Shown: one piece after another, positions 4,217 through 48,430 of the stretch
Layout: each line of letters opens with the position of its first letter
How positions within the stretch are numbered: the first letter of the stretch is position 1
Assembly: GCA_030674455.1 (NCBI GenBank)
Contig: JAUSGQ010000006.1
Coordinates: forward strand, 15,654-79,653
DNA from: a bacterium
GTDB taxonomy: Bacteria > Patescibacteriota > Minisyncoccia > Phycocordibacterales > UBA2100
Direction: 5' to 3'
Length of the DNA stretch: 64,000 nucleotides
Notes under the pieces: generated by a model
What the model saw: the letters and a program-made list of their open reading frames with translations, nothing else
Databases searched by the model: none
What the model was told of the DNA's origin: nothing
Program-made: the position numbers and the translations under genes

Positions 4217-5800
<1,584 letters not shown>

Positions 5801-7489: not shown

Positions 7490-7535
7490 TTCTGTGACAG
7501 TGAAATATTTTGTTCAAGAATGTTAAAGTAACTAC

Positions 7536-9757: not shown

Positions 9758-9788
9758 AAATCGTGCTCAATCGTGATAGCATGCTGAA

Positions 9789-17744: not shown

Positions 17745-20700
17745 ATGCAGAAGGTACATGGGTTCAGCGCGCGCGTGTTTCTTACCTCGTCCGCGATTTT
17801 GGTCGCGGCGATTTTATTATCAGCTTCCATGGTTAGCAAGGCGGACGCGGCCATAGGTCTCGATGTAACCGCATCACTCACCACTTTTAATCAGACAATC
17901 AAGGCCTCCAGCACGCCAACGGCAGTCATCGGGCTTAATCTTATAAGTGTAGCGAGTCCGGGTGTAGAGACCCTTGCATCCACAAGCATCGCCTTTTTTG
18001 GCGCGGGATTCGCGACCACTACTGACCTCGCGCCGCTCGGAACCGCTACGTCCTCCGGCGTAGCGCTCTATCGCGACGACGCTTCGGCGGGTACGCAGGG
18101 CGCTTTTGACGCATTCGACGACGTCGTTCCTCTTCAGAGCGCGTCGTGGGATGTCGCGGGCGCTACGACGACGTTATCATTCCTTACAAACGAAACAGTT
18201 CCAGTTAACGATACCGGCAACAACGCTGGCAACGACTACTTTATAGTAATACAGACCGCGGGGGGAGCTGTAAACCTTCATGCCTTTACGGCAAATATGT
18301 ATCCCGGCTCAATTCAATGGAACGCAAGTACGCCTACGGCGACTCCGATAGCATTGTCCACAAATACGGTAACGATAGACACAGCAGCGCCGACTCTAGA
18401 CACAAGCATGTCTGGACCAGCGAACGGTTCAACAGGTGTTCCTGTTTCCACCTTCATCCATCTCGGCTTCAGCGAGAACCTCGACCAGACGACACTGAAC
18501 CCGAACAACGTCACGCTTACTAGGGGCGGCAATGCGGTTGGAACGGCGATTCGTCCGTTTCCGAACGGCTTTGATTTGGTTGCATCCAGTCCTCCTACGT
18601 ACACGGCATCTTCGCGATTCGCGAAAGCAGACACGGTCAGCACCGGATTCTTCCAGATAAACGGCAGTAACCAGATATTCCCGCAGGGCGGATATTCGGC
18701 GCCGACGCGAGGAGACATCGTCTACACGCAAACGGATACTTTCCCGCCTGAAGTCGGAGTCATAACAAACGCCACTCTCACATCCGGCACCTTCGCGATA
18801 AACAACAACCCCGCGTTCCGTCCTCTACAGATAACCAAATTTGCTTCTCCAACGGTCGCGGGATACACGGGGGACGGCGCGGTTGTTGGAGTAGGCGATC
18901 TCCTTGTCGCGAATACTTCCGCAAAACCTTCCAACGTGCGTTACAACTGGCACATCGTAACGACAGGCCAGGCCCTTAACAATGCGGGCTTGCGCCTGGA
19001 CGGCGAAGATGCGGCTCCTACATACGCGACGACTACATTCGCGCGCCTTTTGCCCGCCGCGACCTCTACTATTGACGCATCGCAACTGTTCACAGCAACG
19101 ACTACCCTTATGGCCGGCGACCTTGTGTTTGCCAAAGTTGTGAGAGGCGGAGACAACCTGAATACATACGCGTGGCATCTTGTGACCACCGCAGAGACCA
19201 ACGATACAGTCACGGCGGCTCCGCCACAGGGAGCGACAGGTACTACGACCGCGCTTCGCCTAGACGGCGCGGCGGTCGCGCCGACATTCGCTGCGAGTTC
19301 AGTGGTTGCGGTTCTTGGTTTTGCCGCACAGGGGGTTCTTGACGGAGCAGTTGCACAGGATGCCACAGTTTTTAGTTTCGGGGACATAATGTTCGCAAAA
19401 ACAACAGATAATGCGGCCAATAACGGCTCTTATGCGTTCCACCTAGTGTCCAACGGCGCGACTGGCGCCACTTCTACCTCGCTCCGTCTTGACAACTCGG
19501 CGTCGAATCTTACTTCTTCCGCTTCCTATGTGATTACCGCGGGTACGGGTATAAAAGATTCCGCGGGCAACGCATTGGCCGCAACATCAACTATTACATT
19601 CACCACTGGCTCAACTGGCGGAACCAACACGACTCCTCCGGCGGTTCAAAACTCCCAACCGCAGGCGGGCAATCAATCGTTTGCTCCAAACGCTCCAATC
19701 AAGCTGATATTTTCTGTAGCTATGGAAGCGGGAAGCACAAGCGGGGCGAACTCGGTTACGAATACCGCCGTCGTCAAACTTTCAACAAGCGTGAACGGCA
19801 CGCCAACAACGCAGGTGACATCGGGCGTAACGAACAGCTACGACTCAACAACGAACACGCTGACAATCGCGCACACGAGCGCTCTTACAGTGAGTACTGA
19901 TTATGTAGTACAAGTGACAACCGCGGCAAAAAGTTCAACGGGCGCTTCGTTCCCGATGGAATATCGCCTCTACTTCAGGACAGGCACTGCTTCCGACAGC
20001 ACGGCGCCGACTATCCTCGGAGTCTCCCCGACAAATTCTTCGACGGGAGTTTCCATGAGCCCCGTTATTACAGCCGGATTCTCGAAAGACATGAATCCCG
20101 CGACGCTAACTACAACGACCGTAAAACTTGTGGAGACATTAAACAATAGCAATGCAGTTGCAGGAGGCGTTTCGTACAGCCCAAACAGCCGTTCCGTGAA
20201 CTTCGTTCCTTCTACCCCGCTTACAGCCAACACAGGATATTCATTCGTAATCGTTGGTGGTGCATCCGGCGTCACGGACCTCTCGAACAACGCTCTGGCG
20301 AGCCACTCCACTACAACCTTCACAACAACGGCAACCGTCGACGTCATCGCGCCTTCCGTCAACTTTGCCAACGCCGATGACTTCGGAATCGCTATCACGT
20401 TCTCCGAGCCGATGAAATCGGGAGGCGGTCCGAACGCCGCCGACAATGTCGCGAACTATACGCTTGAGAGTCCTACAGGCACCTCGATTTCTCTAGGAGG
20501 GAAAACCATAACGTATGACTCGGGCTCAAAAACCGCGCGCATCACGGGCTTGGCGCTTCAGAATGGCAACGGATACAAAGTTACTGTAGCGTTGCCGGTA
20601 CAAGACCTTGCCAGCAACGCTATTTCGATAGTCGGCACTCCAGCGGGCAACCTTGCCTTCGGTACTGTACAAAATTCCACAGCGACGGGCGGCCAGCTCG

Positions 20701-23700
20701 GGCCTGGCGGCGGAACGATGAACTTCAGCATGCAGGGCATGAACCCGACGCGCGTTTCTCCGGAAAGCCGCTCCGCTGGAGTAACGTCAAATTACAAAGT
20801 TGAATTCTTGGCCACTACAGCAATTCCTATCGGCGGGCAGATTCAGCTTGTCTTCCCGAGCGGATTCACGATTACAAATGCATCAACTACTGCCGCGGCA
20901 ACGTCGTTCTGCAACGCGGACCTGAACGGTCCGATGCCTGGGGTTCCCTCAATCGCCACGGTGACCAACGATAATTCTTCAGGAATCATCACGATAACCA
21001 CCGCCGCTTCTTCAACAGGCGCCTCCGCGTTCGTGTGCTTGGACGTAACGGGAGTTGTCAATTCAGCCGTTCCAAATTCAAGCGGATACACAGTAGACAT
21101 AAAGACCCGCGATACGGGAGACAATAATCGCGCGATACTTGAGACGAAGACATCATCGCCATTCTTCCTCGGGCAAGCGGGTTCCCGCACGCTCATTGCA
21201 AACGTATTCAACGACGGCAACGCTAACGGTGAGAAAGACGCGAATGAGGGCATAGCGGATGTGCGCGTATTCCTCTTCTCTCCGGCATCTGGAGGAAATT
21301 CAACTACTACAACCGCGACCGGCGTAGCGACATTCAACTCTCTTTCCGATGGCGACTATATGCTTGGACTCGACCCCGGGTCGTTGGCTAGCGCTTCTTC
21401 GACGGTTACGTTTAATTCCATGCCTCAGCCATTCATGGTATCCGCTACAAATCTGACGAAGAACTTTATAGTTTCCGGAGGAGGGAGCAGCGTGAACATA
21501 TCTGGAACTGTCACAGGCCCATCCGGCACAGCGGTTGACATCTTTGCTTCCAGCAACAACGGCTTTTCGAGAAAGACCGTAACGCTTTCAGGCGGAGCGG
21601 ACGACTATTCGATTCCCGTGAGTACGAATACAATTTACAACGTAGGAGTCGGCCCGGCGATGCCTGAAGCATTCTTCACTCCAGGAGCCCCTCCGCCTCC
21701 GCCGCCTACATTCACCTTCATGCCGCCTCCTAATATCACGGTAACTGTCGCGACAACGTCAATAACGGGCAAAGATTTCTCGCTTACAACCGCGAGTAAA
21801 ACGATTACCGGAACGGTGCGCGATTCTACTGGAGCCGCAGTTTCAAACGCCGGCGTATTCGCTCGGCCTATGTCGAACTCATCGGGCGCGGAAGTCGGTT
21901 TTGGAACCGGAGGACAAACGAATACTTCCGGCTCGTTCACTCTTAACGTAGTACCCGGAACGTATCTGGTCGGCGTATTCAAAGGCGGAATGCCGAATGT
22001 GCCGGACCAGCAAATTACAGTTCCATCTAGCGGGGCCAACACTCCTGCCTCGCTCGCGTTTTCTCTGGGGGCTGGAACGTCTATAACGATTTCCGGAACG
22101 GTGAAAGACGATGGAGGCAACGCGATTCCTTACGCGGGCGTAAACGCGCGCAAAGTGAACTCGTCATCCGACACGACGTCTATGGGCGGAGGCTCGCAAA
22201 ACTTCGTCGGAGGTCCGACGGATTCCAACGGCGCGTACACGCTCTATGTCGACTCGGGAACTTGGGTAGTTGAGGCGTTTGCCCCCGGATTCGGCAGGCT
22301 CGGCCAGAAAACTCTGTCAGTTACGGCAAGCCTCTCCGGACAGGACTTCTCAGCGCAGACGCTTTCTATCGGAACCATAACCGGCACAACTACCAAAGCA
22401 AGCGTCGAGCAACAAGGCGTAATGGTGCGGGCTGACGGCGCGGCGGGCTCCAACATGGCTGTCTCGGATGCTTCCGGCGTATACACGCTGAAAGTCCCGG
22501 CCGGAACTTATAACCTTACCTGTTTCTTCCCGGGTGTCGGCGAATCCGCGCCATTAACGGGAGTCGTGGCAGTAGTGAACGAGACGTCATACAATAATAA
22601 TTGTACTCTTGCTTCTCCCATAACCATTACTGTCAATCTGACGGACGGTACCAATCCGATTACCGGCGCGTACATAGACGTGCGCGATTCGAACGGCCGC
22701 GGAAATGGAACAAACGTTTCGGCCACCTCTAGCACTCTCGCGACCTACACGGTTACCGTGCCTCCGGGAACATATACGGTGCGTGCGGGACATCCAGCGT
22801 ACGGAACGATAGGAAGCACTGGCAACGTCTCCACAACCCAAACTATTACCTACACTACGACTGCGGGCGCTACGAGGGCAATTACGGGCACCGTTTCTGA
22901 CGGCTCGGCCGGAATCAACGGGGCATGGGTGTCGCTCACCGGAACTCCGACAGGTCAAACTAATACGATAAATACTGGAGCGCAGACAGATTCCACGGGT
23001 GCCTTCACGCTCAATGTTCCTGCAGGGGGCTATACAATCCACGCAAACAAAGGGGGATATATAGCTTCCGGCGCTGACTCAACGGTTACAGTCGCTGGAG
23101 CGGCGGTTTCGGTAGGTACCATAACTCTTACGGCCTCAACGCAAACGATATCAGGCACAGTAACATTGGATAATGTTGGTGTTTCCGGCGCTTATGTAGA
23201 CGCCTCCGCCCCCGGCGGCGGATTTGCGGTGTCGCAAACCGATTCCGCCGGCGCGTACTCGCTTGCTGTGAAGAATGGCACGTGGACAGTGCGCGCTCAC
23301 GCGATGGGATATGAAGGCGGGCCCACTACGGTCACGGTCGCGGGCAACAGCCCGACACAGGGAATTGCACTCACTGCAATTACGGGCTTCGTCTCAAAGC
23401 CCGAACATCAGGAGACAGTAACGCCCACCTCGGGAGGATATCTGACGAACTCCGACATCGGGGACAAGTTCAAAATGAGCATTCCGGCTAACGCCTTGGG
23501 CACGGGTTCAAACGCGGTCACTGTGAAAACCCAGGCGTACACGACTCTTCCTAACCCGTCATCGGGCAGCGTTCTTGCTAAAAATGGACTCTCGTTCTCC
23601 GCGGTTGATTCTTCCGGCCAGCCGATAAAAACTCTGAACAGTCCTATCACGATAGTTATTCCTTATACTGAAGCCGATATACCGACAGGAAAGACTGAAG

Positions 23701-24887
23701 CGGACCTAGTGTTCGGAACATGGAATGGAACCGACTATGAGACCTTGCCGACAACAGTAGACACGGTAAACAACACCTTGACGGTAACCATCTCGCACTT
23801 CTCCAGTTTCGCTCCGTTGGTGCAGGGTAATGTCGCAGTGGCAGCCGCTGCGGCTGCAACTACGGCCACGGTTAGTCCCGGCGGCGGGGGAGTCATGGGA
23901 GGAGGCGGGGCTACGAACATTCCGAAAGCACGCGCTCAAATTATTTATCCTGATGGACGCATCGCCTACGTAGACCAGATAGGAGGGGAATCTGCTCCTT
24001 CCGCGAGCGCAACTGCGGGAGCGAGTTCCGCATCTGCATCTTCGGCAGTCTCGGCCTCGGCCAAGTTCACCGCGCTTTTGAAACAGGGCTCCAAGGGTTC
24101 GGATGTTAAGCGACTCCAGAAACTTCTTGGTGTTGAGGAAACGGGATTCTTCGGCGCGCTTACGCGCGCCGCAGTTGAGCAATTCCAAATAAAGTATGGA
24201 ATTGCAAAGAAAGGACAAGCTGGTTTTGGAACTCTTGGACCCAAGACAAGAGCTAAAATCGCAGAGGCATTTAGTTCGACAGCAGCGGCTAGCTCCCCGC
24301 AGGCAGGCACTGCGGCTCCCGAAATCGGTTCGCTTGCGATACTTGCCGGAGGCCAGTTTGTTCGTTCGCTCAATCTTCGCGCGAAGGGAAGCGACGTGCG
24401 TACTCTTCAACAAATTTTGAACAGCGACCCAGACACGCGCGTCTCATCCGAAGGCGCAGGTTCTCCGGGCGGCGAAACGACTTTCTTTGGCGGCGCAACT
24501 CTGAAAGCCGTGCAGAAATTCCAAGTGAAGCATGATATCGCGAAGCCAGGCAATATCGGATACGGAAATGTCGGGCCGAAAACAAGGGCTAAGCTGAACG
24601 AACTCCTAAATGCATCAAGTTCCGGAGGTGTCTCCCTGCCTACCGGCCAGGCAGGCTCACCTTTAGGGGGAGGTGACTCCTCGGGAACATCTGCCTCCAC
24701 TGCCAACACAGCATCCGCATCTGCCGAAGCTTCAACCGCGGCAGCAGTAACCGCGACAACAACCCCGACGTCGTTAGTCGGGGCTCCGACCGAAAGCGTC
24801 GGAGCTGAAACTGCCGCAACGACCACTGCCGCGACAACAGTAGCGGCTACAGCAACTACCACCGCAACTTCCACAGCGAGCAATTAA
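17745..24887 (+). CDS. giant (2380 aa) secreted surface protein: Ig-like/Big and carboxypeptidase-regulatory-like repeats, C-terminal tandem peptidoglycan-binding domains
   Basis: Signal peptide. Repeated SPxNxxTGV Big-like modules and many VSGTVxD...G beta-sandwich repeats. Two PG_binding_1-like modules near the C-terminus (GSDVKRLQKLLGV...GFGTLGPKTRAKI; GSDVRTLQQIL...GYGNVGPKTRAKL) and a low-complexity Ala/Thr tail. In-frame Element B copy at about 24640-24700. Confidence 0.85.
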   Translation: MQKVHGFSARVFLTSSAILVAAILLSASMVSKADAAIGLDVTASLTTFNQTIKASSTPTAVIGLNLISVASPGVETLASTSIAFFGAGFATTTDLAPLGTATSSGVALYRDDASAGTQGAFDAFDDVVPLQSASWDVAGATTTLSFLTNETVPVNDTGNNAGNDYFIVIQTAGGAVNLHAFTANMYPGSIQWNASTPTATPIALSTNTVTIDTAAPTLDTSMSGPANGSTGVPVSTFIHLGFSENLDQTTLNPNNVTLTRGGNAVGTAIRPFPNGFDLVASSPPTYTASSRFAKADTVSTGFFQINGSNQIFPQGGYSAPTRGDIVYTQTDTFPPEVGVITNATLTSGTFAINNNPAFRPLQITKFASPTVAGYTGDGAVVGVGDLLVANTSAKPSNVRYNWHIVTTGQALNNAGLRLDGEDAAPTYATTTFARLLPAATSTIDASQLFTATTTLMAGDLVFAKVVRGGDNLNTYAWHLVTTAETNDTVTAAPPQGATGTTTALRLDGAAVAPTFAASSVVAVLGFAAQGVLDGAVAQDATVFSFGDIMFAKTTDNAANNGSYAFHLVSNGATGATSTSLRLDNSASNLTSSASYVITAGTGIKDSAGNALAATSTITFTTGSTGGTNTTPPAVQNSQPQAGNQSFAPNAPIKLIFSVAMEAGSTSGANSVTNTAVVKLSTSVNGTPTTQVTSGVTNSYDSTTNTLTIAHTSALTVSTDYVVQVTTAAKSSTGASFPMEYRLYFRTGTASDSTAPTILGVSPTNSSTGVSMSPVITAGFSKDMNPATLTTTTVKLVETLNNSNAVAGGVSYSPNSRSVNFVPSTPLTANTGYSFVIVGGASGVTDLSNNALASHSTTTFTTTATVDVIAPSVNFANADDFGIAITFSEPMKSGGGPNAADNVANYTLESPTGTSISLGGKTITYDSGSKTARITGLALQNGNGYKVTVALPVQDLASNAISIVGTPAGNLAFGTVQNSTATGGQLGPGGGTMNFSMQGMNPTRVSPESRSAGVTSNYKVEFLATTAIPIGGQIQLVFPSGFTITNASTTAAATSFCNADLNGPMPGVPSIATVTNDNSSGIITITTAASSTGASAFVCLDVTGVVNSAVPNSSGYTVDIKTRDTGDNNRAILETKTSSPFFLGQAGSRTLIANVFNDGNANGEKDANEGIADVRVFLFSPASGGNSTTTTATGVATFNSLSDGDYMLGLDPGSLASASSTVTFNSMPQPFMVSATNLTKNFIVSGGGSSVNISGTVTGPSGTAVDIFASSNNGFSRKTVTLSGGADDYSIPVSTNTIYNVGVGPAMPEAFFTPGAPPPPPPTFTFMPPPNITVTVATTSITGKDFSLTTASKTITGTVRDSTGAAVSNAGVFARPMSNSSGAEVGFGTGGQTNTSGSFTLNVVPGTYLVGVFKGGMPNVPDQQITVPSSGANTPASLAFSLGAGTSITISGTVKDDGGNAIPYAGVNARKVNSSSDTTSMGGGSQNFVGGPTDSNGAYTLYVDSGTWVVEAFAPGFGRLGQKTLSVTASLSGQDFSAQTLSIGTITGTTTKASVEQQGVMVRADGAAGSNMAVSDASGVYTLKVPAGTYNLTCFFPGVGESAPLTGVVAVVNETSYNNNCTLASPITITVNLTDGTNPITGAYIDVRDSNGRGNGTNVSATSSTLATYTVTVPPGTYTVRAGHPAYGTIGSTGNVSTTQTITYTTTAGATRAITGTVSDGSAGINGAWVSLTGTPTGQTNTINTGAQTDSTGAFTLNVPAGGYTIHANKGGYIASGADSTVTVAGAAVSVGTITLTASTQTISGTVTLDNVGVSGAYVDASAPGGGFAVSQTDSAGAYSLAVKNGTWTVRAHAMGYEGGPTTVTVAGNSPTQGIALTAITGFVSKPEHQETVTPTSGGYLTNSDIGDKFKMSIPANALGTGSNAVTVKTQAYTTLPNPSSGSVLAKNGLSFSAVDSSGQPIKTLNSPITIVIPYTEADIPTGKTEADLVFGTWNGTDYETLPTTVDTVNNTLTVTISHFSSFAPLVQGNVAVAAAAAATTATVSPGGGGVMGGGGATNIPKARAQIIYPDGRIAYVDQIGGESAPSASATAGASSASASSAVSASAKFTALLKQGSKGSDVKRLQKLLGVEETGFFGALTRAAVEQFQIKYGIAKKGQAGFGTLGPKTRAKIAEAFSSTAAASSPQAGTAAPEIGSLAILAGGQFVRSLNLRAKGSDVRTLQQILNSDPDTRVSSEGAGSPGGETTFFGGATLKAVQKFQVKHDIAKPGNIGYGNVGPKTRAKLNELLNASSSGGVSLPTGQAGSPLGGGDSSGTSASTANTASASAEASTAAAVTATTTPTSLVGAPTESVGAETAATTTAATTVAATATTTATSTASN

Positions 24888-24938: not shown

Positions 24939-24955
24939 GAAAGGACAAGGTGTTT

Positions 24956-25060
24956 CCTCAGGCATAGCCGGAGGTGACTCCTTGTCCGCATCCCGCACAA
25001 AGAAATTCCCGAGGTGACTCCTTGGCATTTGCAAGGTGTCTCCTCGAGAATTCTTGAAAT
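24956..25060. repeat. cluster of Element B (GAGGTGACTCC / GGAGTCACCTC) palindromic repeats
   Basis: CCGGAGGTGACTCC and CCCGAGGTGACTCCTTGGCATTTGCAAGGTGTCTCCTCGAGAATTC. Related copies at 31281-31345, 34761-34830, 48381-48430 and 7-53. Confidence 0.6.
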
Positions 25061-25074: not shown

Positions 25075-25692
25075 ATGGATATCTTTTCACACGGGCTTTG
25101 GGCAGGTGCGGCAGCGAAAGCCGCAAACAAAATAAGTTCCCGAGGTGACTCCCTGCCTGCCTCTGGCAGGCTCACCGAAGGGGGAGGCGACTCCTCACGT
25201 AGGGAGGTGTCGCCTCCATGCAGCTCAAAACTAAACGTCTGGCACGCGGCCGCGTGGGGAGTGTTTCCGGATTTGTTTGCGTTCACTCCGGCATTCATCG
25301 GCCTCTTTTGGTTACTCGCCACAGGCCAGATGAGTTTATCAGAGTGGCCGGGTCGGCATGGCGGCGAGCCCTCACCGGGCGACTCGCTTCCCGTATTTCA
25401 ACTCGCTGGCCAGCTCTACAATTTCAGCCACAGCATTTTTGTGTTTGCGATCGTGTTTTGCATTGTGTGGTTCATGCGAAAAAAGCCAGTGCTTGAAATG
25501 GGCGGCTGGCTTCTCCACATCATCATGGATATCCCGACGCATTCATACGCGTTCTATCCGACGCCCGTCTTCTGGCCGCTCTTTGGATGGAAATTCAACG
25601 GCATTCAGTGGGCGCAGCCGTGGTTTTTGATTCTCGATTACGGCTTATTGATTTTGGTGTATTGGTTGTTGAGGGAGAAGAAAATCAAATAA
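25075..25692 (+). CDS. membrane protein, possibly DUF457/YdjM-like metal-dependent hydrolase; N-terminal region carries in-frame repeat elements
   Basis: N-terminal MDIFSHGLWAGAAA, hydrophobic helices, HIIMDIPTHSYAF. Residues 20-60 are encoded by Element A/B copies at 25141-25215. Confidence 0.4.
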   Translation: MDIFSHGLWAGAAAKAANKISSRGDSLPASGRLTEGGGDSSRREVSPPCSSKLNVWHAAAWGVFPDLFAFTPAFIGLFWLLATGQMSLSEWPGRHGGEPSPGDSLPVFQLAGQLYNFSHSIFVFAIVFCIVWFMRKKPVLEMGGWLLHIIMDIPTHSYAFYPTPVFWPLFGWKFNGIQWAQPWFLILDYGLLILVYWLLREKKIK

Positions 25693-26934: not shown

Positions 26935-26982
26935 ATTGAGATGTCATCTCAATGGGTTTCGTATAAAAAGCTTGACCAACGA

Positions 26983-27012
26983 CATTCCAACATTCTCAAG
27001 AATGTTGGAATG
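26983..27012. repeat. third copy of the 30-nt perfect palindrome CATTCCAACATTCTCAAGAATGTTGGAATG
   Basis: Lies between the convergent sortase and toxin genes. Confidence 0.5.
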
Positions 27013-27023
27013 TTATCCATACG

Positions 27024-30055: not shown

Positions 30056-31543
30056 ATGAAAACTATAAACACGTTTGTCGCGATAGCTTTATTTGCGTTT
30101 GGTGCGCCTTTTTTTGCGTTTGCCGATGATAACGTCGGTGACGGCAATGTAATTCCGCCTCCGGGTTATACGGATTATATTCCTACTCCCGGCTATACAG
30201 ACTACATTCCGACCCCGGGATACACGGATTATGTTCCATCGTACGGCTCTCAAGCCTACGATGTCTACGACGTTTACGGAACTTCTCCGACTTACGACTA
30301 CTACTCCACGTCTCCGAATTACTACGCTACCACTCCTAATTATTACTCTAGTCCAAGTTACTACAGTTCCACACCGACTTATTACCCGACGACTCCGGTA
30401 TATTCGTCTCCGGGTGTAGCTGCAGCTCCTATTTACTCTTACTCGCCTACGAATACGACAATAACAGAGACCACTTCAACTTGGGCTCCTTCGGAAGTTT
30501 ACACTTACGCGCCGACCTCAACGTGGGCGCCGACAGAAATATATTCTCCGAGCGAAATTTACACTTACTCGCCTACGACAGTTTCCAATTACTCTCCAAC
30601 AAGTATCTACGCTCCGAACGACAGCCACGATTACGCCCCGACTACGGTTACCACAGACAGCCACAACTACACCGGTCCGGTTACCATCTCGGTAGTCTCG
30701 CAAGCCCCAGCGCAAAGCCCTGTGCAATACGTTTCGGGAGGCGGAACGTACTTCAACAACTCTCCTTCGTACAACAATTCTCCCTCGTACTACAACACGC
30801 CGAGCTACTTCCCGCCGGCGCCTGCGCCTTCTTGCAGAATCGTTGCCAGCGGTGGATACGGCTCCGGCTACGGTAACAATGCAGTTGTACTCTCTTGGAC
30901 TTCTTCGAATGCCAACAGCGGATACATCTCTCCGCTCGTAGGCACTGTCGCTCCTTCCGGCTCGACGACTGTTTACCCGAACGCCAATACTCTCTACACG
31001 CTCACGGTTTCGGGCAATGGCGGAACTTCTTCCTGCCAAACGTATGCCGGTTACAGCAACTATGTTGCTCCTGCCGCTCCGGTCTACACAGCTCCGGTTG
31101 CGCAAGCGGCCGCAGTAGCTCCGTATGTCGCCCTCACGCAGATTCCTTACACGGGATTTGACTTCGGCACCTTCGGCAACGCCATGTACTGGCTCGTGCT
31201 TGCGGGATTCGCTGTCGCCGCTTCCTACCTTGTACTCTACTTCCGCGGTGGCGCATTCGCGCTCGTCGGCTCGATGTTGCGAGGAAAGAATTCTCGAGGA
31301 GACACCTCCCCCTTGGGGGTGAGGAGTCACCTCGGAAATGCCGGAAAGACCGCTGAATTCGCGACGTCACGAGTTTCCGAGGAGACACCTTCCCTGCCCG
31401 CCGAAGCTTCAGCGCAGGCAGGCAAAAGCGAAGGAGTCACCTCGAACCTCGGAACTTCTGCCCGTGGCACGAATGATTCAATGATTTCCGTCGGTTCAGT
31501 AGAGGGCGGAATGGGTCCGCGCATCGTAGTACTCCGCGCTTAA
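30056..31543 (+). CDS. secreted Ser/Thr/Tyr/Pro-rich repeat surface protein with C-terminal IPYTG-TM-basic tail (candidate sortase substrate)
   Basis: Signal peptide. PTPGYTDYIPTPGYTDYIPTPGYTDYVP repeats. A Cys-bracketed LSWTSSNANSG domain like those in the 2619-4082 protein. IPYTG at 31142-31156 followed by a hydrophobic helix and RGG...R. The cytoplasmic tail is extended by Element A/B insertions. Confidence 0.7.
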   Translation: MKTINTFVAIALFAFGAPFFAFADDNVGDGNVIPPPGYTDYIPTPGYTDYIPTPGYTDYVPSYGSQAYDVYDVYGTSPTYDYYSTSPNYYATTPNYYSSPSYYSSTPTYYPTTPVYSSPGVAAAPIYSYSPTNTTITETTSTWAPSEVYTYAPTSTWAPTEIYSPSEIYTYSPTTVSNYSPTSIYAPNDSHDYAPTTVTTDSHNYTGPVTISVVSQAPAQSPVQYVSGGGTYFNNSPSYNNSPSYYNTPSYFPPAPAPSCRIVASGGYGSGYGNNAVVLSWTSSNANSGYISPLVGTVAPSGSTTVYPNANTLYTLTVSGNGGTSSCQTYAGYSNYVAPAAPVYTAPVAQAAAVAPYVALTQIPYTGFDFGTFGNAMYWLVLAGFAVAASYLVLYFRGGAFALVGSMLRGKNSRGDTSPLGVRSHLGNAGKTAEFATSRVSEETPSLPAEASAQAGKSEGVTSNLGTSARGTNDSMISVGSVEGGMGPRIVVLRA

Positions 31544-31574: not shown

Positions 31575-31660
31575 ATAGACACCTGTAGACGGCCTATCGT
31601 TTGTGATAGGCACCTGTAGACGGCCTATCGTTCATGATAGACACCTGTAGACGGTCCGTG
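31575..31660. repeat. three tandem 31-bp copies of Element C (CACCTGTAGACGG core)
   Basis: ATAGACACCTGTAGACGGCCTATCG(TTTGTG) repeated three times. Confidence 0.65.
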
Positions 31661-31783
31661 AGCTCCCCCTCCTTCGCCTCCTCCTTCGCATAAAGCTACG
31701 GAAGGACAAAGAAGGCTTCGGAGGGCAAAGAAAGCGAAAGCAACAAAAACCGCCTCAATGGCGGTTTTTGTTTTGTGGCTATA

Positions 31784-34213: not shown

Positions 34214-37200
34214 TCAAAGCGCCTTAGCCTTTTCCACCACGAAGCTGGACTCTCCGTTGCGCAATGAGAATTTGCCTTTCAGCATGACGCATGTACCGGC
34301 GATTATGCTCGGTTCGTTTTCTTTGAGCGTGCGAGGGAAAAGGACTATTTCAACGCTTCCCGAATAATCAGAGAGGCGGCCGAATGCCATGCGCTCGCCG
34401 TTCTTGGTCAGAATGTACTGGAGATTCTCGAGCAGTCCTGCGATGACAGTTTCTGTTCCTTTGGGGAACGTTTCTTTCGCGACGCCGATGGCCATCTTTT
34501 GTTTCGCCAGTTTTTCTTTATGCGCGTCCAAAGGATGGCCTGATACGTACAATCCGAGAAGTTCCTTCTCCCAGGTTAGCCGCTGTGTCATTGTGGCGGG
34601 CGGTGCAGGTTTAAGGGAGAGCTTTGCCGGAAAGAACGCACCTCCGCCGGAGGCGGATCCGCCTCCGGCGGAGAATAGGGAACTCTGATTAGTCGGAATG
34701 TCGGTATGTTCTTTGTGAAAGCTCAAAAGTAGGTCGATGTTCGCGAGAAGCTGTCCGCGGGTGTCCGCATCAGAGGTGACTCCTCCTTTGGAGGTGTCTC
34801 CTCGGATGCTGGAGGAGTCACCTCGGGCTAGTTCGTCCAATGCTCCGCATTTAATAAGAGACTCGAGAGATTTTTTATTTAAGTTTTTGTCCGGAACTCT
34901 GCTTAAGAAATCTCCAACGTCGGTAAACTTCTTTCCTTTCTCCATTGCTATCATTATGGAGTCGGCGACACCCGTGCCGAAATTCTTTATCGAGTATAAG
35001 CCAAATCTAATGCTCTTGTCGTCCACTACCGTAAAATTTCCCTGGCTCTCGTTGACGGACGGCGGAAGAATCTTCAATCCCATGCGCGCGCATTCCGCGA
35101 CGACGATAGCCACTTTATCCACATCGCCTGCGTCCGCGGTAAGGACAGAAGCCATGTAGTCGACAGGGAAATTAGCCTTCATGTAAGCCGTTTTATAGGC
35201 TAAGTTACCGTAAGATGCCGCGTGCGCTTTGTTGAAACCATACGCGGCAAAAGTCTCGATTTGTTCCCAGAGTTTCTGGACGAGTGCCTCTTTCATTCCA
35301 TGTTTCAAGCAACCGCGAGTAAATTTCTCTTTTTGCGCGCGCATCTCAACAGGGATTTTCTTTCCCATTGCTTTACGGAACTTATCGGCTTCAAGCCACG
35401 TATAACCTGCGATTTTAGTTGCAATTTCCAAGACATCGTCCTGATATGTGATAACTCCATACGAATTTTTTAGAATCGTTTCCATGCGCGGGTCCAAATA
35501 TTCCACCTGCTCCGGATGCTTCTTGCGCTCGATGTAATTGGGGATGAATGCCATGGGGCCCGGCCGATAGAGCGCGACCATCGCGTTGATGTCGTGAATG
35601 CTTGTGGGCTCGAGATTGATGAGGTGGCTCGTCATGCCTGCGCTCGCGAGCTGGAACACGCCGAGTGTTTCTCCGCGCCCGAGCATCTCGAACGTTTTTT
35701 TGTCGTCGAGCGGTAGGCGGTCAAGATCGATTTTTATTTGCAAACGCTTTTCCACGCGCACGATTGAATCCGCAAGAACGGAAAGGTTCGTGAGTCCCAA
35801 GAAGTCGAATTTCAGAAGCCCCGCGTCTTCCACCGCATACATATCGTATTGCGTTATTTTCTTTCCTCCTTTCGGGTCGAGTTGCACGGGGACGTAATCG
35901 GTGACCGGCCCCGGCGCAATGACGACGCCCGCGGCGTGAACGCCCATGTGCCGCGCGTTTCCCTCGACTTTTTTGGACAGGTTGATAATTTCCCGCGCAT
36001 CCGGGTCGCGCTTGTACATTTCTTTAAGCTCCGGAACTTCCTCGAGCGCGCCGTCTATGGTGACGGGGAATCCCTGCTTGCCGAACGGTATCAGCTTCGC
36101 GATGGTGTCGCCCGTGCCGTATGCGTGGCCGAGCGCGCGGGAGACATCGCGCACCGCCGCGCGCGCCATCATGGTGCCGAACGTCCCTATTTGCGCAACA
36201 TGGTTTTCTCCGTACTTTTCGCGCACGTAATCAATGAGCTCGTCGCGCCGGTTGTCCGCGAGGTCCATATCGATATCGGGCGGGGATGGGCGCTCGGGGT
36301 TTAGGAATCGTTCAAAGGGAAGCTGATACTCTATCGGGTTCACCGTGGTAATGCCCGAAAGATACGAAACAAGCGAGCCGGCAGCCGACCCCCTCGTGTT
36401 GGTAAGAATTCCTTTTTCTCGCGCGTGCCGCAAAAGGTCTGCGACCACGAGAAAGTACGGAGAATAGCCTTTCTCCTCAATGACCGAAAGTTCGTACTCC
36501 ACGCGTTTCTTGTTTTTTTCCGTTTCTGACATTCCACGTTCCTTGAATCCCGCGTATGCCATTTCGCGTAGAACATCGTTGTGGGATGTACCTTTGGGAA
36601 CCGGAAATTCAGGGAATACCCACGTGCCGAGCTTCAGTTCGAGGTTGCAGGCCTCGGCGATATTAACGGAATTCGCAAGCGCTTCGGGATATTTTGCAAA
36701 AATCTCCATCGCTTTCGCGCGCGTCATGAATGAAAAATCGGGCGCATTTTCTGCGAAGTCGCGGTTCAAGACGCTCGCCGAACGGATTTTATCCACGAGC
36801 TCGCGCGCAAGCGCGTCCTCCTTTTCCATGTAGTAGACCTCCTGCGAGGCGACTAGGCCGATGCCCGATTCCCGCGCAAGCGAAGCGATACTTTTCATCA
36901 ATTTCTCGTGCCCTTCGATTTCCGGATGATGCGTGATCTCTGCGTAACATCCGCCGGCGGGCGGAGAGCCGAAAACGGAAACATGCCAGCGCGCGGAATC
37001 CTTTGCCCGCTCTATCGCTTTATCTTTGAGCGCGCGGGAATGCTCGCCGTCTTGCGCCGGCAAAATCGCTATCAAACCCTCGCGATGCATTTCAATAAGC
37101 TCGCGGTCAACGCGGGGACGCACAAAGAATCCTTCCAGATGCGATTTTGTGACAAGTTGTATGAGATTGCGATATCCCTCTTTATTCTTTGCCAATAGAA

Positions 37201-37471
37201 CGAGGCGTGTCGGCGAATCGTCAACGCGATGTTCTTTGTCGCGCATCGTGCGCGTCGCGACAAAGAAATCGACGCCGATTATCGGCTTTATTCCTTTCCC
37301 CTTGCATTCTTTGTAGAACTCAATCGCTCCATAAAGATTTCCGTTATCGGTTAGCGCGAGTACTCGTTGTCCGTCGGCAGCGGCAGCATCAACAAGAGTG
37401 GGAATTTGAGGCAGAGCCTCGAGAAGCGAATAATGAGAATGCGTATGCAGGTTAACGAAATCGGGTTCCAT
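34214..37471 (-). CDS. dnaE: DNA polymerase III alpha subunit
   Basis: N-terminal PHP domain (VNLHTHSHYSLLEA), polymerase core and C-terminal OB fold. Contains an in-frame 32-nt perfect palindrome at 34642-34673 and an Element B cluster at 34761-34830. Confidence 0.95.
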   Translation of the reverse strand: MEPDFVNLHTHSHYSLLEALPQIPTLVDAAAADGQRVLALTDNGNLYGAIEFYKECKGKGIKPIIGVDFFVATRTMRDKEHRVDDSPTRLVLLAKNKEGYRNLIQLVTKSHLEGFFVRPRVDRELIEMHREGLIAILPAQDGEHSRALKDKAIERAKDSARWHVSVFGSPPAGGCYAEITHHPEIEGHEKLMKSIASLARESGIGLVASQEVYYMEKEDALARELVDKIRSASVLNRDFAENAPDFSFMTRAKAMEIFAKYPEALANSVNIAEACNLELKLGTWVFPEFPVPKGTSHNDVLREMAYAGFKERGMSETEKNKKRVEYELSVIEEKGYSPYFLVVADLLRHAREKGILTNTRGSAAGSLVSYLSGITTVNPIEYQLPFERFLNPERPSPPDIDMDLADNRRDELIDYVREKYGENHVAQIGTFGTMMARAAVRDVSRALGHAYGTGDTIAKLIPFGKQGFPVTIDGALEEVPELKEMYKRDPDAREIINLSKKVEGNARHMGVHAAGVVIAPGPVTDYVPVQLDPKGGKKITQYDMYAVEDAGLLKFDFLGLTNLSVLADSIVRVEKRLQIKIDLDRLPLDDKKTFEMLGRGETLGVFQLASAGMTSHLINLEPTSIHDINAMVALYRPGPMAFIPNYIERKKHPEQVEYLDPRMETILKNSYGVITYQDDVLEIATKIAGYTWLEADKFRKAMGKKIPVEMRAQKEKFTRGCLKHGMKEALVQKLWEQIETFAAYGFNKAHAASYGNLAYKTAYMKANFPVDYMASVLTADAGDVDKVAIVVAECARMGLKILPPSVNESQGNFTVVDDKSIRFGLYSIKNFGTGVADSIMIAMEKGKKFTDVGDFLSRVPDKNLNKKSLESLIKCGALDELARGDSSSIRGDTSKGGVTSDADTRGQLLANIDLLLSFHKEHTDIPTNQSSLFSAGGGSASGGGAFFPAKLSLKPAPPATMTQRLTWEKELLGLYVSGHPLDAHKEKLAKQKMAIGVAKETFPKGTETVIAGLLENLQYILTKNGERMAFGRLSDYSGSVEIVLFPRTLKENEPSIIAGTCVMLKGKFSLRNGESSFVVEKAKAL

Positions 37472-41855: not shown

Positions 41856-42082
41856 TCCCGTTAGAAGTTACGGAAGGTCTGATAAGCAAATATCCGCGGA
41901 ATGTTTTGCATTGGTCGATTATTTACCAGGAACGAACAACGAGACGGAAGCGCAAGCTTCCTACCTGCCCGCCAAAGCCAGAGCGGGGCAAATGGCATGA
42001 AGACAAACGCAAAGTATTTATTAGTTAATCAAGTTCGCCACGACCGTCGCTTCAGGCGATGGCAGGCGGGCTTCTAACGGGA
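41856..42082 (+). mobile_element. 227-bp non-coding TIR element (MITE-like) inserted in the SMC-like gene start codon; TIR TCCCGTTAGAAG, TSD TGTA
   Basis: Left end TCCCGTTAGAAG (41856-41867). Right end CTTCTAACGGGA (42071-42082). TGTA occurs at 41852-41855 and 42083-42086. The final A of the element plus the TSD TG rebuilds ATG at 42082. Confidence 0.7.
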
Positions 42083-44358
42083 TGTACCTAAAGTCCATTG
42101 AGCTTACGGGGTTCAAATCGTTCGGCAAAAAGACCGACATAGTTTTTGCTTCCCGCATTTCTTCTATCGTGGGTCCGAATGGTTCCGGAAAATCAAATGT
42201 CGCGGAAGCATTCAGATTCGTGCTCGGAGAACAATCAATGAAATCACTGCGCTCCAAGCGCGGGGAGGATTTGATATGGGGAGGGTCGCCGACACTGCCG
42301 AGGAGCAATAGAGCCGGCGTGAAAGTCGTTTTTGATAATTCCCTGCCTGCCGCGCAGGGCACGGCGCAGGCAGGCACGCGGCTTTTGGATTTGGATTTTA
42401 ACGAGGTCGCCGTTGAACGAATCGTGTATCGCGACGGCGAGAACGAGTATCTATTGAATGGAACCAAGGTGCGCCTCAAGGACGTCATCCGTTTGCTCGC
42501 GGGCGCCAACATCGGCGGCTCCGGATACCAGATAATTTCACAGGGAGAAGCCGACAGGATCCTGAATGCGAGTCCTCGCGAGCGCAGAGAGATGGTGGAA
42601 GATGCTCTCGGTCTCAAGCTCTACCAGCACAAAAAAGCCGAGAGCGAGCGAAAGCTCGAGGAGACGGCATCAAATATTGATAAAACAAAATCGCTCCGGC
42701 GCGAGATAACCCCGCATCTGAATTTCTTGCGCTCTCAAGTCCAGAAAATCGAGAAAGCGCGGGAGATGAAGGAGATGCTCGCGGCAAAACTTTCCGAATA
42801 TCTTGCGCGTGAACACGCGTGGATAACTTCGGAAGACAAGCGGCTTAGTGCGGAAGAGCGTTCGCAGGAAACAGAATTAAAGACTCTTGGAAATCGAGCC
42901 AATGAGGCGCGGGGAAAGCGCCCGAGCCAAAGCGCCGGCGTTCTGCAGGAACTGAAGGGAAAGATAATTGAGCGCGAGCAAAAACTTAGTGAGGCCCGGC
43001 GCGAGAGCGAGAAACTCACACGCGAACTCGGGCGGGCCGAAGGCGTTGCAGAAGCCAATACGGTGATGGTGGAGCAAATCGTCGCCGTGCCGCATGTGAG
43101 GCAGTTTGCCCGCGAGGTTAGCGAGGCGATTTCGGAAGCTTTGCGCAACGACGACATGCCTTCCGTGCGCGTGCTTCTTTTGCACATTAAGGACCGCATT
43201 CAATCATTCGTCGACGGTCTTTCCGGTTCGGCGCCGGATACGAAAGAAGAATCGCAGCAACAGGTGAAAGCAATCGCGAATTCTTTGGAGCGCGTCCAAA
43301 AAGAGGAAACGGCGCTCGCGCAGGAGCTGGAGGCATTGCGAGCGCAAATTACACAGGTGCGCGATGCCGGTTTTGCGGCGGAGCGCGATTTAATCGAACT
43401 TGAATCTGCTGTGCGCGAAGCGCAGGGAAAGCTCGGTTCTGTGCAAAACGCGCGCATGACCATAGCGACTTTGCGCCAGGCATTTGAGGACGAAGTGCGC
43501 GAAGGCATCGCTCTCGTCGGTGCCGCTATCCATGATTGGGAAAAGCCCCTCCGCCAGCCGGCGGATGGCGGAGCGGGGGATGAGGTGCTTACTGGCGACG
43601 ACCGCCCCGCGCAGGAAAAAAGGCGGCGGGAGATCGAGCGGTTGAAAATAAAGATAGAGGAATCTGGAATTGGAAACGGCGATGCGGTCGTGCGCGAGTT
43701 CAATCAGACCAGAGAACGCGACGAATTTCTCGGACGCGAGCTTGTAGACCTTGAGCGCTCCGCGGCGTCGCTCAAAGATATTATTGTGGAACTGGAGAAG
43801 ACTATTGATGCCAAATTTACGGAAGGCCTCAAATTGATAAACGCCACGCTCGGCGATTTCTTTATGAAATTGTTCGGCGGAGGCGCAGCCAAGCTGGAAG
43901 TGGAGGAACCCCGCCTTCGCCGAGGCTCCGGCGGGCAAAGCCCGAAAAGCGATGAGGACTTAATGGATGAGGAGGAAGAAATGACCGAGGAAGAGGAATT
44001 GTACGCGGGACTTTCTATCTCGGTCCATCTTCCGCGCAAAAAAGTTCACGGGCTTGAAGTACTTTCCGGAGGCGAGCGCGCGCTCACTTCTATCGCGCTT
44101 ATATTCTCGATGTCGCAGGTTAATCCTCCGCCGTTCTTGGTTTTGGACGAAACAGATGCCGCTCTTGATGAGGCCAACAGCAAGCGATACGCAGATATGA
44201 TTCGCGAGCTTGGCTCCAAAAGCCAGCTTATCGTTATCACGCACAACCGCTCGACAATGGCCGCGGCAGGAGAACTTTATGGAGTTACGATGGGGAACGA
44301 CGGGGTCTCGAAAATGTTGTCCGTTAAATTGGAAGAGGCCGAAAAGGTTGCAAAATAA
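42082..44358 (+). CDS. SMC-family chromosome-segregation ATPase (short, 758 aa; hinge not recognised)
   Basis: N-terminal Walker A GPNGSGKSN, long coiled-coil, C-terminal LSGGERALTSIALIF and Walker B LVLDETDAALDEAN. Confidence 0.75.
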   Translation: MYLKSIELTGFKSFGKKTDIVFASRISSIVGPNGSGKSNVAEAFRFVLGEQSMKSLRSKRGEDLIWGGSPTLPRSNRAGVKVVFDNSLPAAQGTAQAGTRLLDLDFNEVAVERIVYRDGENEYLLNGTKVRLKDVIRLLAGANIGGSGYQIISQGEADRILNASPRERREMVEDALGLKLYQHKKAESERKLEETASNIDKTKSLRREITPHLNFLRSQVQKIEKAREMKEMLAAKLSEYLAREHAWITSEDKRLSAEERSQETELKTLGNRANEARGKRPSQSAGVLQELKGKIIEREQKLSEARRESEKLTRELGRAEGVAEANTVMVEQIVAVPHVRQFAREVSEAISEALRNDDMPSVRVLLLHIKDRIQSFVDGLSGSAPDTKEESQQQVKAIANSLERVQKEETALAQELEALRAQITQVRDAGFAAERDLIELESAVREAQGKLGSVQNARMTIATLRQAFEDEVREGIALVGAAIHDWEKPLRQPADGGAGDEVLTGDDRPAQEKRRREIERLKIKIEESGIGNGDAVVREFNQTRERDEFLGRELVDLERSAASLKDIIVELEKTIDAKFTEGLKLINATLGDFFMKLFGGGAAKLEVEEPRLRRGSGGQSPKSDEDLMDEEEEMTEEEELYAGLSISVHLPRKKVHGLEVLSGGERALTSIALIFSMSQVNPPPFLVLDETDAALDEANSKRYADMIRELGSKSQLIVITHNRSTMAAAGELYGVTMGNDGVSKMLSVKLEEAEKVAK

Positions 44359-44621: not shown

Positions 44622-45080
44622 ATGTTAATGATACGAATGCAGAGAATAGGCCGCAAAAACATGCCGGCTTTTCGTATTATTGTCGCCGAACACACCCGTG
44701 GCCCGAAGACCGGCAACATCGTTGAAAAGGTGGGCACCTACAATCCGAAGACGAAAGAGAAGCAGTTCAACGCGGACAGGATTAAATACTGGCTTTCTGT
44801 CGGAGCAAAGGCCAGTGCCACAGTTCACAACATGCTCGTTTCCGAGAAAATCATCACTGGAGCAAAAATTGCAAAACACCAAGAGAAACCGGCAGAACCG
44901 GTGGCGGCTAAAACCGCCGACCTGCCCGCCGAAGCCTCGGCGCAGGCGGGAGGCGGTTCGCCCGACTCTTCGCAAAGCGAAGAGGTTAGGGAAGTAAAGG
45001 CCGAGGCAAAGGCACCAGAGGCAGAAACCGCTCCAGCAGCTGAAGAAAAAGTTGAGGCAAAAGAAGAAAAGGTTGCCTAA
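44622..45080 (+). CDS. rpsP: 30S ribosomal protein S16 with Ala/Glu/Lys-rich C-terminal extension
   Basis: MIRMQRIGRKNMPAFRIIVAEHTRGPKTGNIVEKVGTYNP is bS16. The tail carries an in-frame Element A copy (LPAEASAQAGG, 44922-44950). Confidence 0.85.
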   Translation: MLMIRMQRIGRKNMPAFRIIVAEHTRGPKTGNIVEKVGTYNPKTKEKQFNADRIKYWLSVGAKASATVHNMLVSEKIITGAKIAKHQEKPAEPVAAKTADLPAEASAQAGGGSPDSSQSEEVREVKAEAKAPEAETAPAAEEKVEAKEEKVA

Positions 45081-48371: not shown

Positions 48372-48380
48372 TTTTAGGAA

Positions 48381-48430
48381 TTTCCGAGGAGACACCTCCC
48401 CACACATGGGTGAGGAGTCACCTCGGAAAT
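48381..48430. repeat. Element B copy (TTTCCGAGGAGACACCTCC...GGGTGAGGAGTCACCTCGGAAATGCC), intergenic
   Basis: 24 nt are identical to 31325-31348. Imperfect ~20-bp hairpin with TTTCCGAGG/CCTCGGAAA ends. Confidence 0.65.

Follow-up and report, generated by a model that had tools for sequence, protein, structure and literature searches.

Element B is a short hairpin repeat that is dispersed through a 64-kb stretch of DNA (64,000 nt, hereafter the window; contig JAUSGQ010000006.1, positions 15,654 to 79,653) from a groundwater member of the Patescibacteria with a very small genome. It is a population resembling REPINs, the hairpin-forming inverted doublets of repetitive extragenic palindromic (REP) sequences, with intragenic, frame-preserving persistence and in a new phylum. 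The most likely mechanism, to which a probability of about 0.7 may be given, is multiplication of the doublet by an enzyme of the RAYT type (REP-associated tyrosine transposase) combined with selection that filtered for in-frame survivors located in loops.

In this mechanism, B would be a family of REP-type hairpin repeats, mostly inverted doublets with a REPIN-like architecture. The hairpin, as single-stranded DNA, would be the substrate of a RAYT-like Y1 (HUH) tyrosine transposase that would have multiplied the population and that probably still maintains it. Doublets would then persist in intergenic spacers and in those genes where the reading frame is kept, such that a REPIN-like population may have colonised coding sequence in the manner of the Rickettsia palindromic elements (RPEs). 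REPINs are regarded as extragenic, and RPEs are the textbook in-frame repeats whose moving enzyme has stayed unknown for 25 years. Element B combines the two behaviors in a single family, and its hosts, which have reduced genomes, belong to a third and unrelated group. A candidate clade of Y1 (RAYT-like) transposases with B-type flanking hairpins makes the mechanism testable.

Architecture and distribution of element B

The core GAGGAGTCACCTC, allowing up to two mismatches, matches the window 23 times compared to 0.82 expected from dinucleotide-preserving shuffles; none of 100 shuffles reached 23 and their maximum was not above 5. A degenerate core (GAGG[AT]G[AT]C[AT]CCTC) produced 24 matches against 2.4 expected. 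The unit of B is a 13-nt quasi-palindromic module, [A/G]AGG-AG[A/T]CA-CCT[C/T], with complementary flanks that are usually TTCC...GGAA. The standard element is an inverted doublet of two modules, (T)TCC-GAGGAGACACCTC-spacer-GAGGAGTCACCTC-GG(A)A, which together with a spacer of 5–39 nt forms a hairpin of approximately 45–75 nt including the flanks (31–65 nt from core to core). When modules were classed by their three variable bases, 63 of 93 clusters were doublets and 11 were singlets, with the AAA-ATA arrangement or its reverse complement TAT-TTT present in 59. The main length classes of 35, 37–38 and 64–65 nt have their arms in common and differ in their spacers. The 35-nt class contains CCTT-GC-AAATG-CC-AAGG, or the covarying form CCTT-CC-AAATG-CG-AAGG, and the 37–38-nt class contains CCTCCCCC-loop-GGGGTGAGG. 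In the 64–65-nt class, a second palindrome, element A (CTGCCCGC...GCAGGCGGGCA), occupies the loop of B exactly.

Single-strand folding of eight window copies gave free energies (dG) of -14 to -28 kcal/mol with z-scores of -3 to -8 for seven of them and -2.0 for a diverged copy at 1–60. Together with the excess of cores, this bears out the dispersed imperfect hairpin that a first-pass annotation had described from the window sequence. For 65 distinct copies, a long-hairpin model had 70.1% of its cells paired (63.8% in shuffles) and a covariation score of 0.202 (0.098 in shuffles) that none of 500 shuffles reached; slid registers scored 0.12 or less. Pairs beyond the searched core also covary, as seen at column 23:38 (U-A in 39 copies, C-G in 26, unpaired in 0) and in the flank pairs 6–10:51–55, and an A·A mismatch at two hairpin positions is conserved in every copy.

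The nearest species-level genomes by DnaE amino acid identity are L001 (CAYHST01, 88%) and L002 (JAUYLR01, 83%), with all others at 68% or less. Both were found without the bias of a search pattern and have cores identical to those of the metagenome copies described below. Some of their copies, and the window copy at 9–43, form a subfamily whose core carries a compensatory swap from C-G to G-C. Rearrangement of the element arrays leaves positional homology between the window and L001 for some copies only, and a single clearly orthologous doublet within a gene was therefore used for comparison (window 31379–31443, L001 8068–8005), and it presents two compensatory double substitutions. Hairpin pairing is maintained by compensatory changes, also inside genes. 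Among the mismatches, G·T is not in excess over A·C. There is no T-tract 3' of the hairpin and, therefore, B is not a typical intrinsic terminator. CRISPR or TIGR arrays were rejected since the copies are dispersed and not arrayed, as were integron attC sites since there are neither cassettes nor an R/L box consensus.

All eight places named in the first-pass annotation hold modules (9–43, 24625–24682, 24947–25045, 25142–25216, 31296–31333, 31379–31443, 34773–34824 and 48386–48424), some of them a few bases from where they had been placed. The 24-mer reported there as identical in two copies, GTGAGGAGTCACCTCGGAAATGCC, does occur twice, at 31319–31342 and 48410–48433, each 6 nt away from the positions given for it (31325–31348 and 48404–48427). 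Three of the eight copies are intergenic. At the window edge, a diverged doublet on the minus strand (6–46) is made of the modules GAGGTGAGTCCTC (9–21) and GAGGTCTCTCCCTC (30–43) and carries the C-G to G-C swap, which is identical in L001 at 8005–8068. A four-module cluster on the minus strand (24947–25060) lies between the stop of a giant-protein gene (24887) and the start of a membrane-protein gene (25075), and includes a standard doublet of the 35-nt class at 25011–25045. The third, a standard forward doublet on the plus strand (48378–48433, core 48386–48424), begins 7 nt past the stop codon of a DUF2231 membrane-protein gene and has an orthologous copy in L104.

One strand of a B module, for example at 24665–24680, reads GGAGGTGA and is perfectly Shine-Dalgarno-like; the other reads TCACCTCC and resembles the 3' end of 16S rRNA. 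In-frame copies thus put strong Shine-Dalgarno-like sites into genes, where they are sequestered by the hairpin.

From a DnaE comparison, the window belongs to the Patescibacteria/Parcubacteria, near the Kaiserbacteria. Among 80 fetched Parcubacterial DnaE loci, the B module was present only in the window, L001 and L002 and was found in none of 76 loci; module density was 0.59/kb in the B lineage compared to 0.06/kb in the remaining loci. A metagenome scan for doublets with the pattern GAGGAGACACCT-N12-42-GGAGTCACCTC returned 64 loci, from groundwater samples throughout (Hainich, Ga0209542, Ga0209211, C687J35174). None of the 64 is identical to the window and five have regions that are 78–82% identical to it. 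The further copies that a true repeat should have elsewhere are, thus, present in relatives and in these metagenome loci, and element B belongs to a genus-level, Kaiserbacteria-like lineage of the Patescibacteria. A scan of viral contigs with the doublet pattern gave no match, no Rfam family matched the whole window at gathering thresholds, an exact-protein look-up of the window DnaE and a 495-aa protein described below returned no record, and literature searches for comparable elements in bacteria of the candidate phyla radiation (CPR) found none.

An assembly artefact was rejected since identical elements occur in independent JGI, ENA, NCBI and Logan assemblies. In particular, Logan contigs of SRR13727527 are an independent assembly that encodes window proteins exactly, including a 205-aa membrane protein with its insert. 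In that assembly (L146, L147 and L148), the genome of the window is present only in contigs of 2–3 kb. At least one contig end, the start of L148 (approximately window position 25019), falls within a B cluster, which suggests that B repeats fragment short-read assemblies of this lineage.

Copies within reading frames

Of 68 distinct standard copies, 19 (about a quarter) lie well within open reading frames (ORFs) of at least 250 aa. About a third of the clusters are intergenic, and the host genomes have very little non-coding DNA. Measured from core to core, 14 of the 19 copies in long ORFs have a length of 1 mod 3, such that 2, 5 or 8 additional flank bases give a multiple of 3; this holds for only 3 of 19 intergenic copies (Fisher p = 1.6e-4). 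This excess of frame-preserving lengths is a signature of selection against frameshifts and argues for translation of the copies and against their removal from the mRNA. Ten copies have the orientation of the host gene and nine the opposite one. Four of the five stop-free combinations of frame and orientation are in use, giving GD[ST]S, GV[ST]S, EE[TS]P and EV[TS]P; the frame containing TGA is absent and the RRHL frame was unseen in long ORFs. Copies in genes are located at loops, linkers and termini, and the stop-free frames produce hydrophilic peptides (G-D/V-S/T-S, E-E/V-T/S-P). The lack of an orientation bias, the use of several frames and the lack of a G·T excess indicate that B is an element acting at the level of DNA; neither a conserved peptide nor a strand-specific RNA fits.

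The dnaE gene (DNA polymerase III alpha; 34214–37471, minus strand) is one of the essential genes that host B in frame. Three B modules (34773–34785, 34791–34803 and 34812–34824, within 34766–34830 on the minus strand) encode a 21-aa in-frame insertion, RGDSSSIRGDTSKGGVTSDAD, at residues 883–903 that is missing from approximately 25 homologues, which have ALDxxGE-RG instead. The peptide RGDSSSIRGDTSKGGVTSDADTRG that the first-pass annotation had read from this copy is correct. The insertion follows GALDxxG at the end of the helix-hairpin-helix/beta-binding region and, when compared to the solved Pol III alpha structures 7pu7 and 2hpi, as had been proposed as a check, its site is gapped. A second in-frame palindrome in the same gene (34644–34671) is a perfect 28-bp palindrome, CCGCCGGAGGCGGATCCGCCTCCGGCGG, that encodes SAGGGSASGGGA directly after a clamp-binding-like motif, NQSSLF. 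This palindrome is absent from the dnaE genes of L110, L088 and L109, and it occurs in L102, L113, L117, L120, L122 and L123.

A 495-aa surface or membrane protein (30056–31543, plus strand) hosts two standard forward doublets on the plus strand. Members of its family combine a conserved ..IPYTG.. motif and a transmembrane helix with a variable linker and an end that is again conserved (C-terminus DSM..PRIVVxR). The first doublet (31288–31342, core 31296–31333) is of the 38-nt class with the spacer CCCCCTTGGGGGT and is read in frame in the linker as ..SRGDTSPLGVRSHLGN.. The second (31371–31455, core 31379–31443) is of the 65-nt class with element A nested in its loop, is read in frame as ..SEETPSLPAEASAQAGKSEGVTSNLG.. 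and is the orthologue of L001 8005–8068. The frame then runs on into the conserved C-terminus DSMISVGS..GPRIVVLRA, in support of the claim that both copies in the tail of this protein are coding.

The 205-aa YdjM-like membrane protein (25075–25692, plus strand) has been classed as DUF457-like, and the copy assigned to its N-terminus is indeed inside the ORF. Three modules (starting at 25142, 25184 and 25204, and spanning 25142–25216) and an inner hairpin make up an in-frame insert in an N-terminal loop (25130–25220), read as ..SRGDSLPASGRLTEGGGDSSRREVSPP.. One of its modules, GAGGTGTCGCCTC, has the loop TGTCG, as does a hairpin that flanks the Y1 transposase gene of L098. At the identical loop, L001 has another, shorter palindromic insert (ACPVAPPKADG). 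The DUF2585 protein of L165 was considered as an orthologue and was rejected on comparison.

The largest host is a 2380-aa surface protein (17745–24887, plus strand) with Big_5, CarboxypepD_reg and PG_binding_1 domains. Its atypical B pair (24613–24692) combines a TTT-type module (24625–24637) and a TAT-type module (24670–24682) around an inner, A-like hairpin, CTGCCTACCGGCCAGGCAGG, and is read as ..GGVSLPTGQAGSPLGGGDSSGTS.. Homology to L001 stops at ..KLNELL, and the L001 ORF ends at a TGA within a B module. The window ORF continues for approximately 92 residues without a counterpart in the closest relative, and this C-terminal extension starts with the B pair. While the copy is within the ORF as the first-pass annotation had it, it is inside a lineage-specific extension of what is a predicted translation. 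After a check of coding sequence boundaries, the coding copies of the window all stay inside their genes.

In relatives, the hosts of in-frame doublets include GatB, MurC (murC), the methionyl-tRNA synthetase MetRS (metG), a GT4 glycosyltransferase, a ZIP transporter, a metallo-beta-lactamase and Ig-like surface proteins, with the doublets located at domain boundaries or loops. For CPR genomics, B repeats lengthen essential proteins (DnaE, GatB) and create or remove stop codons at the ends of genes.

Origin of the repeat population

In a search for Y1 genes, E. coli RayT was compared with every ORF of the related loci, and the first match then served as the next query. Y1_Tnp genes were found in L105, L098, L003, L009 and L014. 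The clade of the L098 type (PF01797, HUH motif NHYHLL, tyrosine motif NYIHCNPVE) has 797 homologues at E <=1e-10, almost all from metagenome-assembled genomes of Kaiserbacteria/Parcubacteria and some of them named RayT by JGI. In nine of nine contexts examined, genes of this clade have [A/G]AGG-N5-CCT[C/T] hairpins with complementary outer flanks. The hairpins lie on both sides of the gene in eight contexts; L003 is cut by the start of its locus and has a downstream flank only. The flanks of L098/L150 are CCGT-AAGG-TGTCG-CCTT-ACGG and CCGT-AAGG-CGACA-CCTT-ACGG, and L149 has TGACA downstream. CAGC-AAGG-CGTCG-CCTT-GCTG is found in L152, CCCAC-GAGG-CGTCG-CCTC-GTGGG in L154–L158 and L165, CATC-AAGG-CGACG-CCTT-GATG in L159–L163, and ACC-GAGG-TTAAA-CCTT-GGT in L014 and L003, and L164 has hairpins of its own with the [A/G]AGG-N5-CCT[C/T] core.

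The B module, GAGG-AG[A/T]CA-CCTC, has the same architecture as these flanks. Its AGACA loop is 1 nt from a loop of the L098 flank, and the flank hairpins of the clade mostly have a central G-W-C, as does B. The L098/L150 contig carries both the Y1 gene and a standard B doublet. B doublets that have the stem of the L098 hairpin as their inner stem (CCTTACGG/CCGTAAGG) are found in L137, L115 and L125. Two other Y1 genes were rejected as partners of B: the canonical RAYT of L105, which is flanked by a different hairpin (AATGGGGTCAGGTACCATTT), and the second Y1 gene of L149, which has other hairpins (CCCATTTAGGAC..GTCCTAAATGGG). These genes (L105 7454–8120; L149 5248–5907) form a more canonical RAYT-like clade, although the L105 protein scores 73.8 bits against NCBIfam REP_Tyr_transpos for a cut-off of 80. 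Taken with the L098-type clade, there are at least two Y1/hairpin systems in these genomes.

Close strains differ by the presence, absence or replacement of elements, as the first-pass annotation had proposed to check. At the DnaE site, the three modules of the window correspond to a 37-nt doublet of opposite orientation in L001, to three modules with an insert in the loop in L110 and to a perfect TAT/ATA palindrome in L088. In L002, the module is split (GAGGTG^TCTCCTC) by another palindrome, CCTGCCCCGTAG..CGGGG. L109, which is 91–98% identical to L088 overall, has an unrelated 96-nt palindrome there. L123 does not have a composite of approximately 100 nt that is present in L117, and in L141 a 30-nt element A that is missing from L088 occupies the B loop (GGCTTT^GCAAGG). 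At the GatB site (..ANVSVAK^LGTKVEIKN..), a B doublet is found in L094/L100/L129 and a 169-aa insert bearing a nuclease in the window. Such strain-level length polymorphisms could pass for sequencing or binning errors.

The closest precedent is provided by REPINs, in which REP sequences form inverted doublets and hairpins with common compensatory changes and the RAYT is flanked by REPs (Bertels & Rainey 2011, PMC3116915; bioRxiv 10.1101/2021.07.10.451892). Likewise, B has a short palindromic unit (13 nt; REP approximately 14 bp), occurs mostly as inverted doublets with a variable spacer, and forms a long hairpin with compensatory changes in a lineage-restricted population of slow turnover. The Y1/HUH genes flanked by hairpins of B architecture are also at strain-conserved positions, as RAYTs are.

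Several observations weigh against multiplication of B by a RAYT-like enzyme. The 64-kb window does not encode a transposase of any type. Among the contexts examined, no Y1 gene is flanked by exact B modules (AGACA/AGTCA loops) and the cognate enzyme is, therefore, a putative one; as judged from sequence, the link is suggested by a common hairpin architecture, by loops that differ in 1 nt and by one contig on which both occur. Transposition was not directly observed, and the differences between strains are also compatible with homologous recombination or module slippage; that between L088 and L109 sits where the flank identity shifts from 91% to 98%. A target-site duplication was sought at filled and empty sites, where the junctions were ambiguous and no clear direct duplication was found. 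Several copies are at orthologous positions in species whose dnaE genes are only approximately 79% identical, so movement, if any, is slow. The core invariance of the metagenome copies is partly forced by the exact search pattern. B also departs from REPINs, which are described as almost exclusively extragenic and approximately 100 bp long (PMC3116915; bioRxiv 10.1101/2021.07.10.451892): its doublets are 31–65 nt from core to core, 19 of the 68 distinct standard copies are in long ORFs, its host is a Patescibacterium, and the closest hairpin flanking a Y1 gene is 1 nt off in the loop, leaving a RAYT candidate only.

The main rival draws on many of these points. B may be a selfish, RPE-like repeat that is unrelated to a Y1 transposase and owes its spread to an unknown mechanism or, for the most part, to recombination, gene conversion or replication slippage between hairpins, in which case the likeness to transposase flanks would be convergent or distant. 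The window without a transposase, the lack of a B-flanked RAYT and the polymorphisms that recombination or slippage could produce are all accommodated. Moreover, unrelated palindromes without the [A/G]AGG-N5-CCT[C/T] motif (element A, CCTGCCCCGTAG.. and CCGCCGGAGGCGGATCCGCCTCCGGCGG) are equally in frame, and RPEs, for which no mobilising enzyme is known, are characterised by in-frame insertion at numerous loci (PMC10969869). This explanation is nonetheless unlikely since the exact stem motif of B and a 5-nt loop occur in all nine Y1-clade contexts, most with the central G-W-C, one contig bearing B has a Y1 gene with a loop 1 nt from that of B, and the doublet organisation and compensatory evolution match REPINs.

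As summarised in PMC10969869, RPEs are palindromic repeats of approximately 100–150 bp that lie in frame in many unrelated housekeeping genes, at permissive positions, and also in non-coding DNA, with one conserved peptide per family (Ogata et al. 2000). B resembles them in that it, too, has entered unrelated housekeeping genes in frame in a reduced genome, at sites that protein function permits, and in occurring in non-coding DNA as well. It differs in being much shorter, in using several frames and both orientations to encode different peptides, and in having a RAYT-like candidate enzyme. Since the host of B is a Patescibacterium, a different phylum, homology to RPEs is not expected.

Selection of the B module as a functional signal is less probable again. 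The signal could be a DNA uptake sequence, in bacteria that rely on taking up DNA, a binding site for a protein that organises the chromosome or regulates genes, or a hairpin in the RNA that influences mRNA stability or translation, and it would have spread by drive or selection and not by transposition. The modules are highly conserved in L001 and L002, both free of search bias, where the surrounding DNA is approximately 70–80% identical; compensatory changes preserve the hairpin even in genes; and one module strand contains a Shine-Dalgarno-like GGAGGTG. The density of approximately 0.3 modules per kb and the frequent inverted pairs recall the DNA uptake sequences (DUS) of Neisseria which, like the uptake signal sequences (USS) of Pasteurellaceae, are short over-represented motifs, often in inverted pairs, in and outside genes. 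However, the copies of B are discrete protein insertions that add length and not motifs arising from point mutations, their conservation reaches variable but complementary flanks and nested partners, and the window genome holds at least five other palindrome families of similar density alongside B. The lack of an orientation bias relative to transcription, of tolerance for G·U pairs, of a T-tract after the hairpin and of an Rfam match also weighs against a functional signal. Selection as a peptide module, such as an RGD-type adhesion motif or a flexible surface-protein linker, is very improbable since, even though RGDS/RGDT is encoded by several of the copies and surface proteins make up many of the hosts, four of the five stop-free combinations are read as unrelated peptides (GDTS, EETP, RSHL, EVTP, GVSS), about a third of the clusters are intergenic, and the hosts include the cytoplasmic enzymes DnaE, GatB, MurC and MetRS.

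Two further types of element were compared. Miniature elements derived from IS200/IS605 insertion sequences (IS) and associated with palindromes, and classical MITEs (transposable elements of the miniature inverted-repeat type), are non-autonomous and hairpin-ended with a transposase in trans, as may be the case for B. B is without an evident target-site duplication, as expected for Y1 transposition. It differs in having neither distinct left and right ends nor an internal IS remnant. A classical MITE has terminal inverted repeats and a target-site duplication and stems from an IS of the DDE type; for B, no parent IS was found, and the ends of B are inseparable from its stem because the whole element is a palindrome. 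The Y1 genes associated with B also differ from IS200 in that they are at fixed, strain-conserved positions like RAYTs and are not multi-copy. In heterocystous cyanobacteria, Elhai et al. reportedly described in 2008, in Genome Res, very small imperfect palindromes that nest in one another and in larger miniature elements and that enter conserved sequences without destroying them. These repeats would resemble B in their length of tens of nt and in their nesting, with different sequences and a different host, and we know of no association with a Y1 transposase reported for them.

RAYT-type multiplication followed by selection, thus, is retained as the preferred explanation. A broader proposal is that B and its sister hairpin families together form a RAYT-maintained REPIN population whose niche has shifted into the coding sequence of an ultra-compact CPR genome with almost no extragenic space, and which is kept structurally intact there, to judge by the compensatory changes inside genes. 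This proposal is tentative. If it were correct, it would define an "intragenic REPIN" system linking REPINs to in-frame palindromic insertions of the Rickettsia type, and a Y1 transposase would be the long-unknown enzyme behind such insertions.

Nested palindromes and other repeat families

Small palindromes nest in the loop of B, in the case of element A, or in the center of a module, and B nests within larger palindromes, often being enclosed by a further one, AAGGTCTCACCTC...GGGAGAGACCTTGG. This nesting results in composite hairpins and in hot spots of insertion, among them the loops of DnaE and GatB. The modular composite of A and B suggested by the first-pass annotation is, thus, upheld: element A is placed exactly in the B loop of the 64–65-nt class and is separately present or absent there between close strains.

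Hairpins of the element A type (CCCGCCGAAGCCTCGGCGCAGGCGGG) are also found at 4514–4542, 16323–16357, 43910–43938, 44916–44950 and 45526–45554, in each case inside an ORF. The hosts are an ABC-F ATPase, BipA/TypA, SMC, ribosomal protein S16 (in a C-terminal extension) and a DEAD-box helicase. Since the unit is 30 nt long, it preserves the reading frame.

The gatB gene of the window (59207–61528) contains the 169-aa in-frame insert at approximately 60113–60619. The insert contains a complete PD-(D/E)XK_3 nuclease domain (PF13366, E = 2e-31), and its region is bracketed by 42-nt inverted repeats (59886–59927 and 60560–60601) that are 86% complementary and encode ..ISADxxxRISAD.. The window GatB has two more small inserts and its true start is probably M98.

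One of the other repeat families in the window consists of CCGTCTACAGGTGCC and a variable hairpin, at 5333, 9703, 26717, 37550, 45361, 62206 and 63488, and in three tandem copies at 31575–31667. On the other strand, the hairpin comes first and CCTGTAGACGG after it; the latter includes GTAG, the tetranucleotide found ahead of classical E. coli REPs. The family could represent another set of REPs that is served by a RAYT of its own. Inverted hairpins of the AAGGTTAAACCTT / AAGGTTTAACCTT type at 72–115 and 397–440 enclose 281 nt. Their module is also found on the flanks of the Y1 transposase genes in L014 (Kaiserbacteria GW2011_GWA2_52_12) and L003, and the pair in the window could be the footprint of a lost RAYT-like gene.

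A family of perfect palindromes, ATTCCAACATTCTCAAGAATGTTGGAAT, is intergenic at 7134–7175, 7458–7496, 9725–9760 and 26981–27019, with two of the copies being 100% complementary across 33 nt. A 68-nt direct repeat that is 85% identical (41941–42008 and 52209–52276) lies just upstream of smc and of an inositol monophosphatase gene, and each copy is followed by another similar stretch of 35 nt. The two genes may have a promoter or leader in common, or the repeat may be a further mobile unit.

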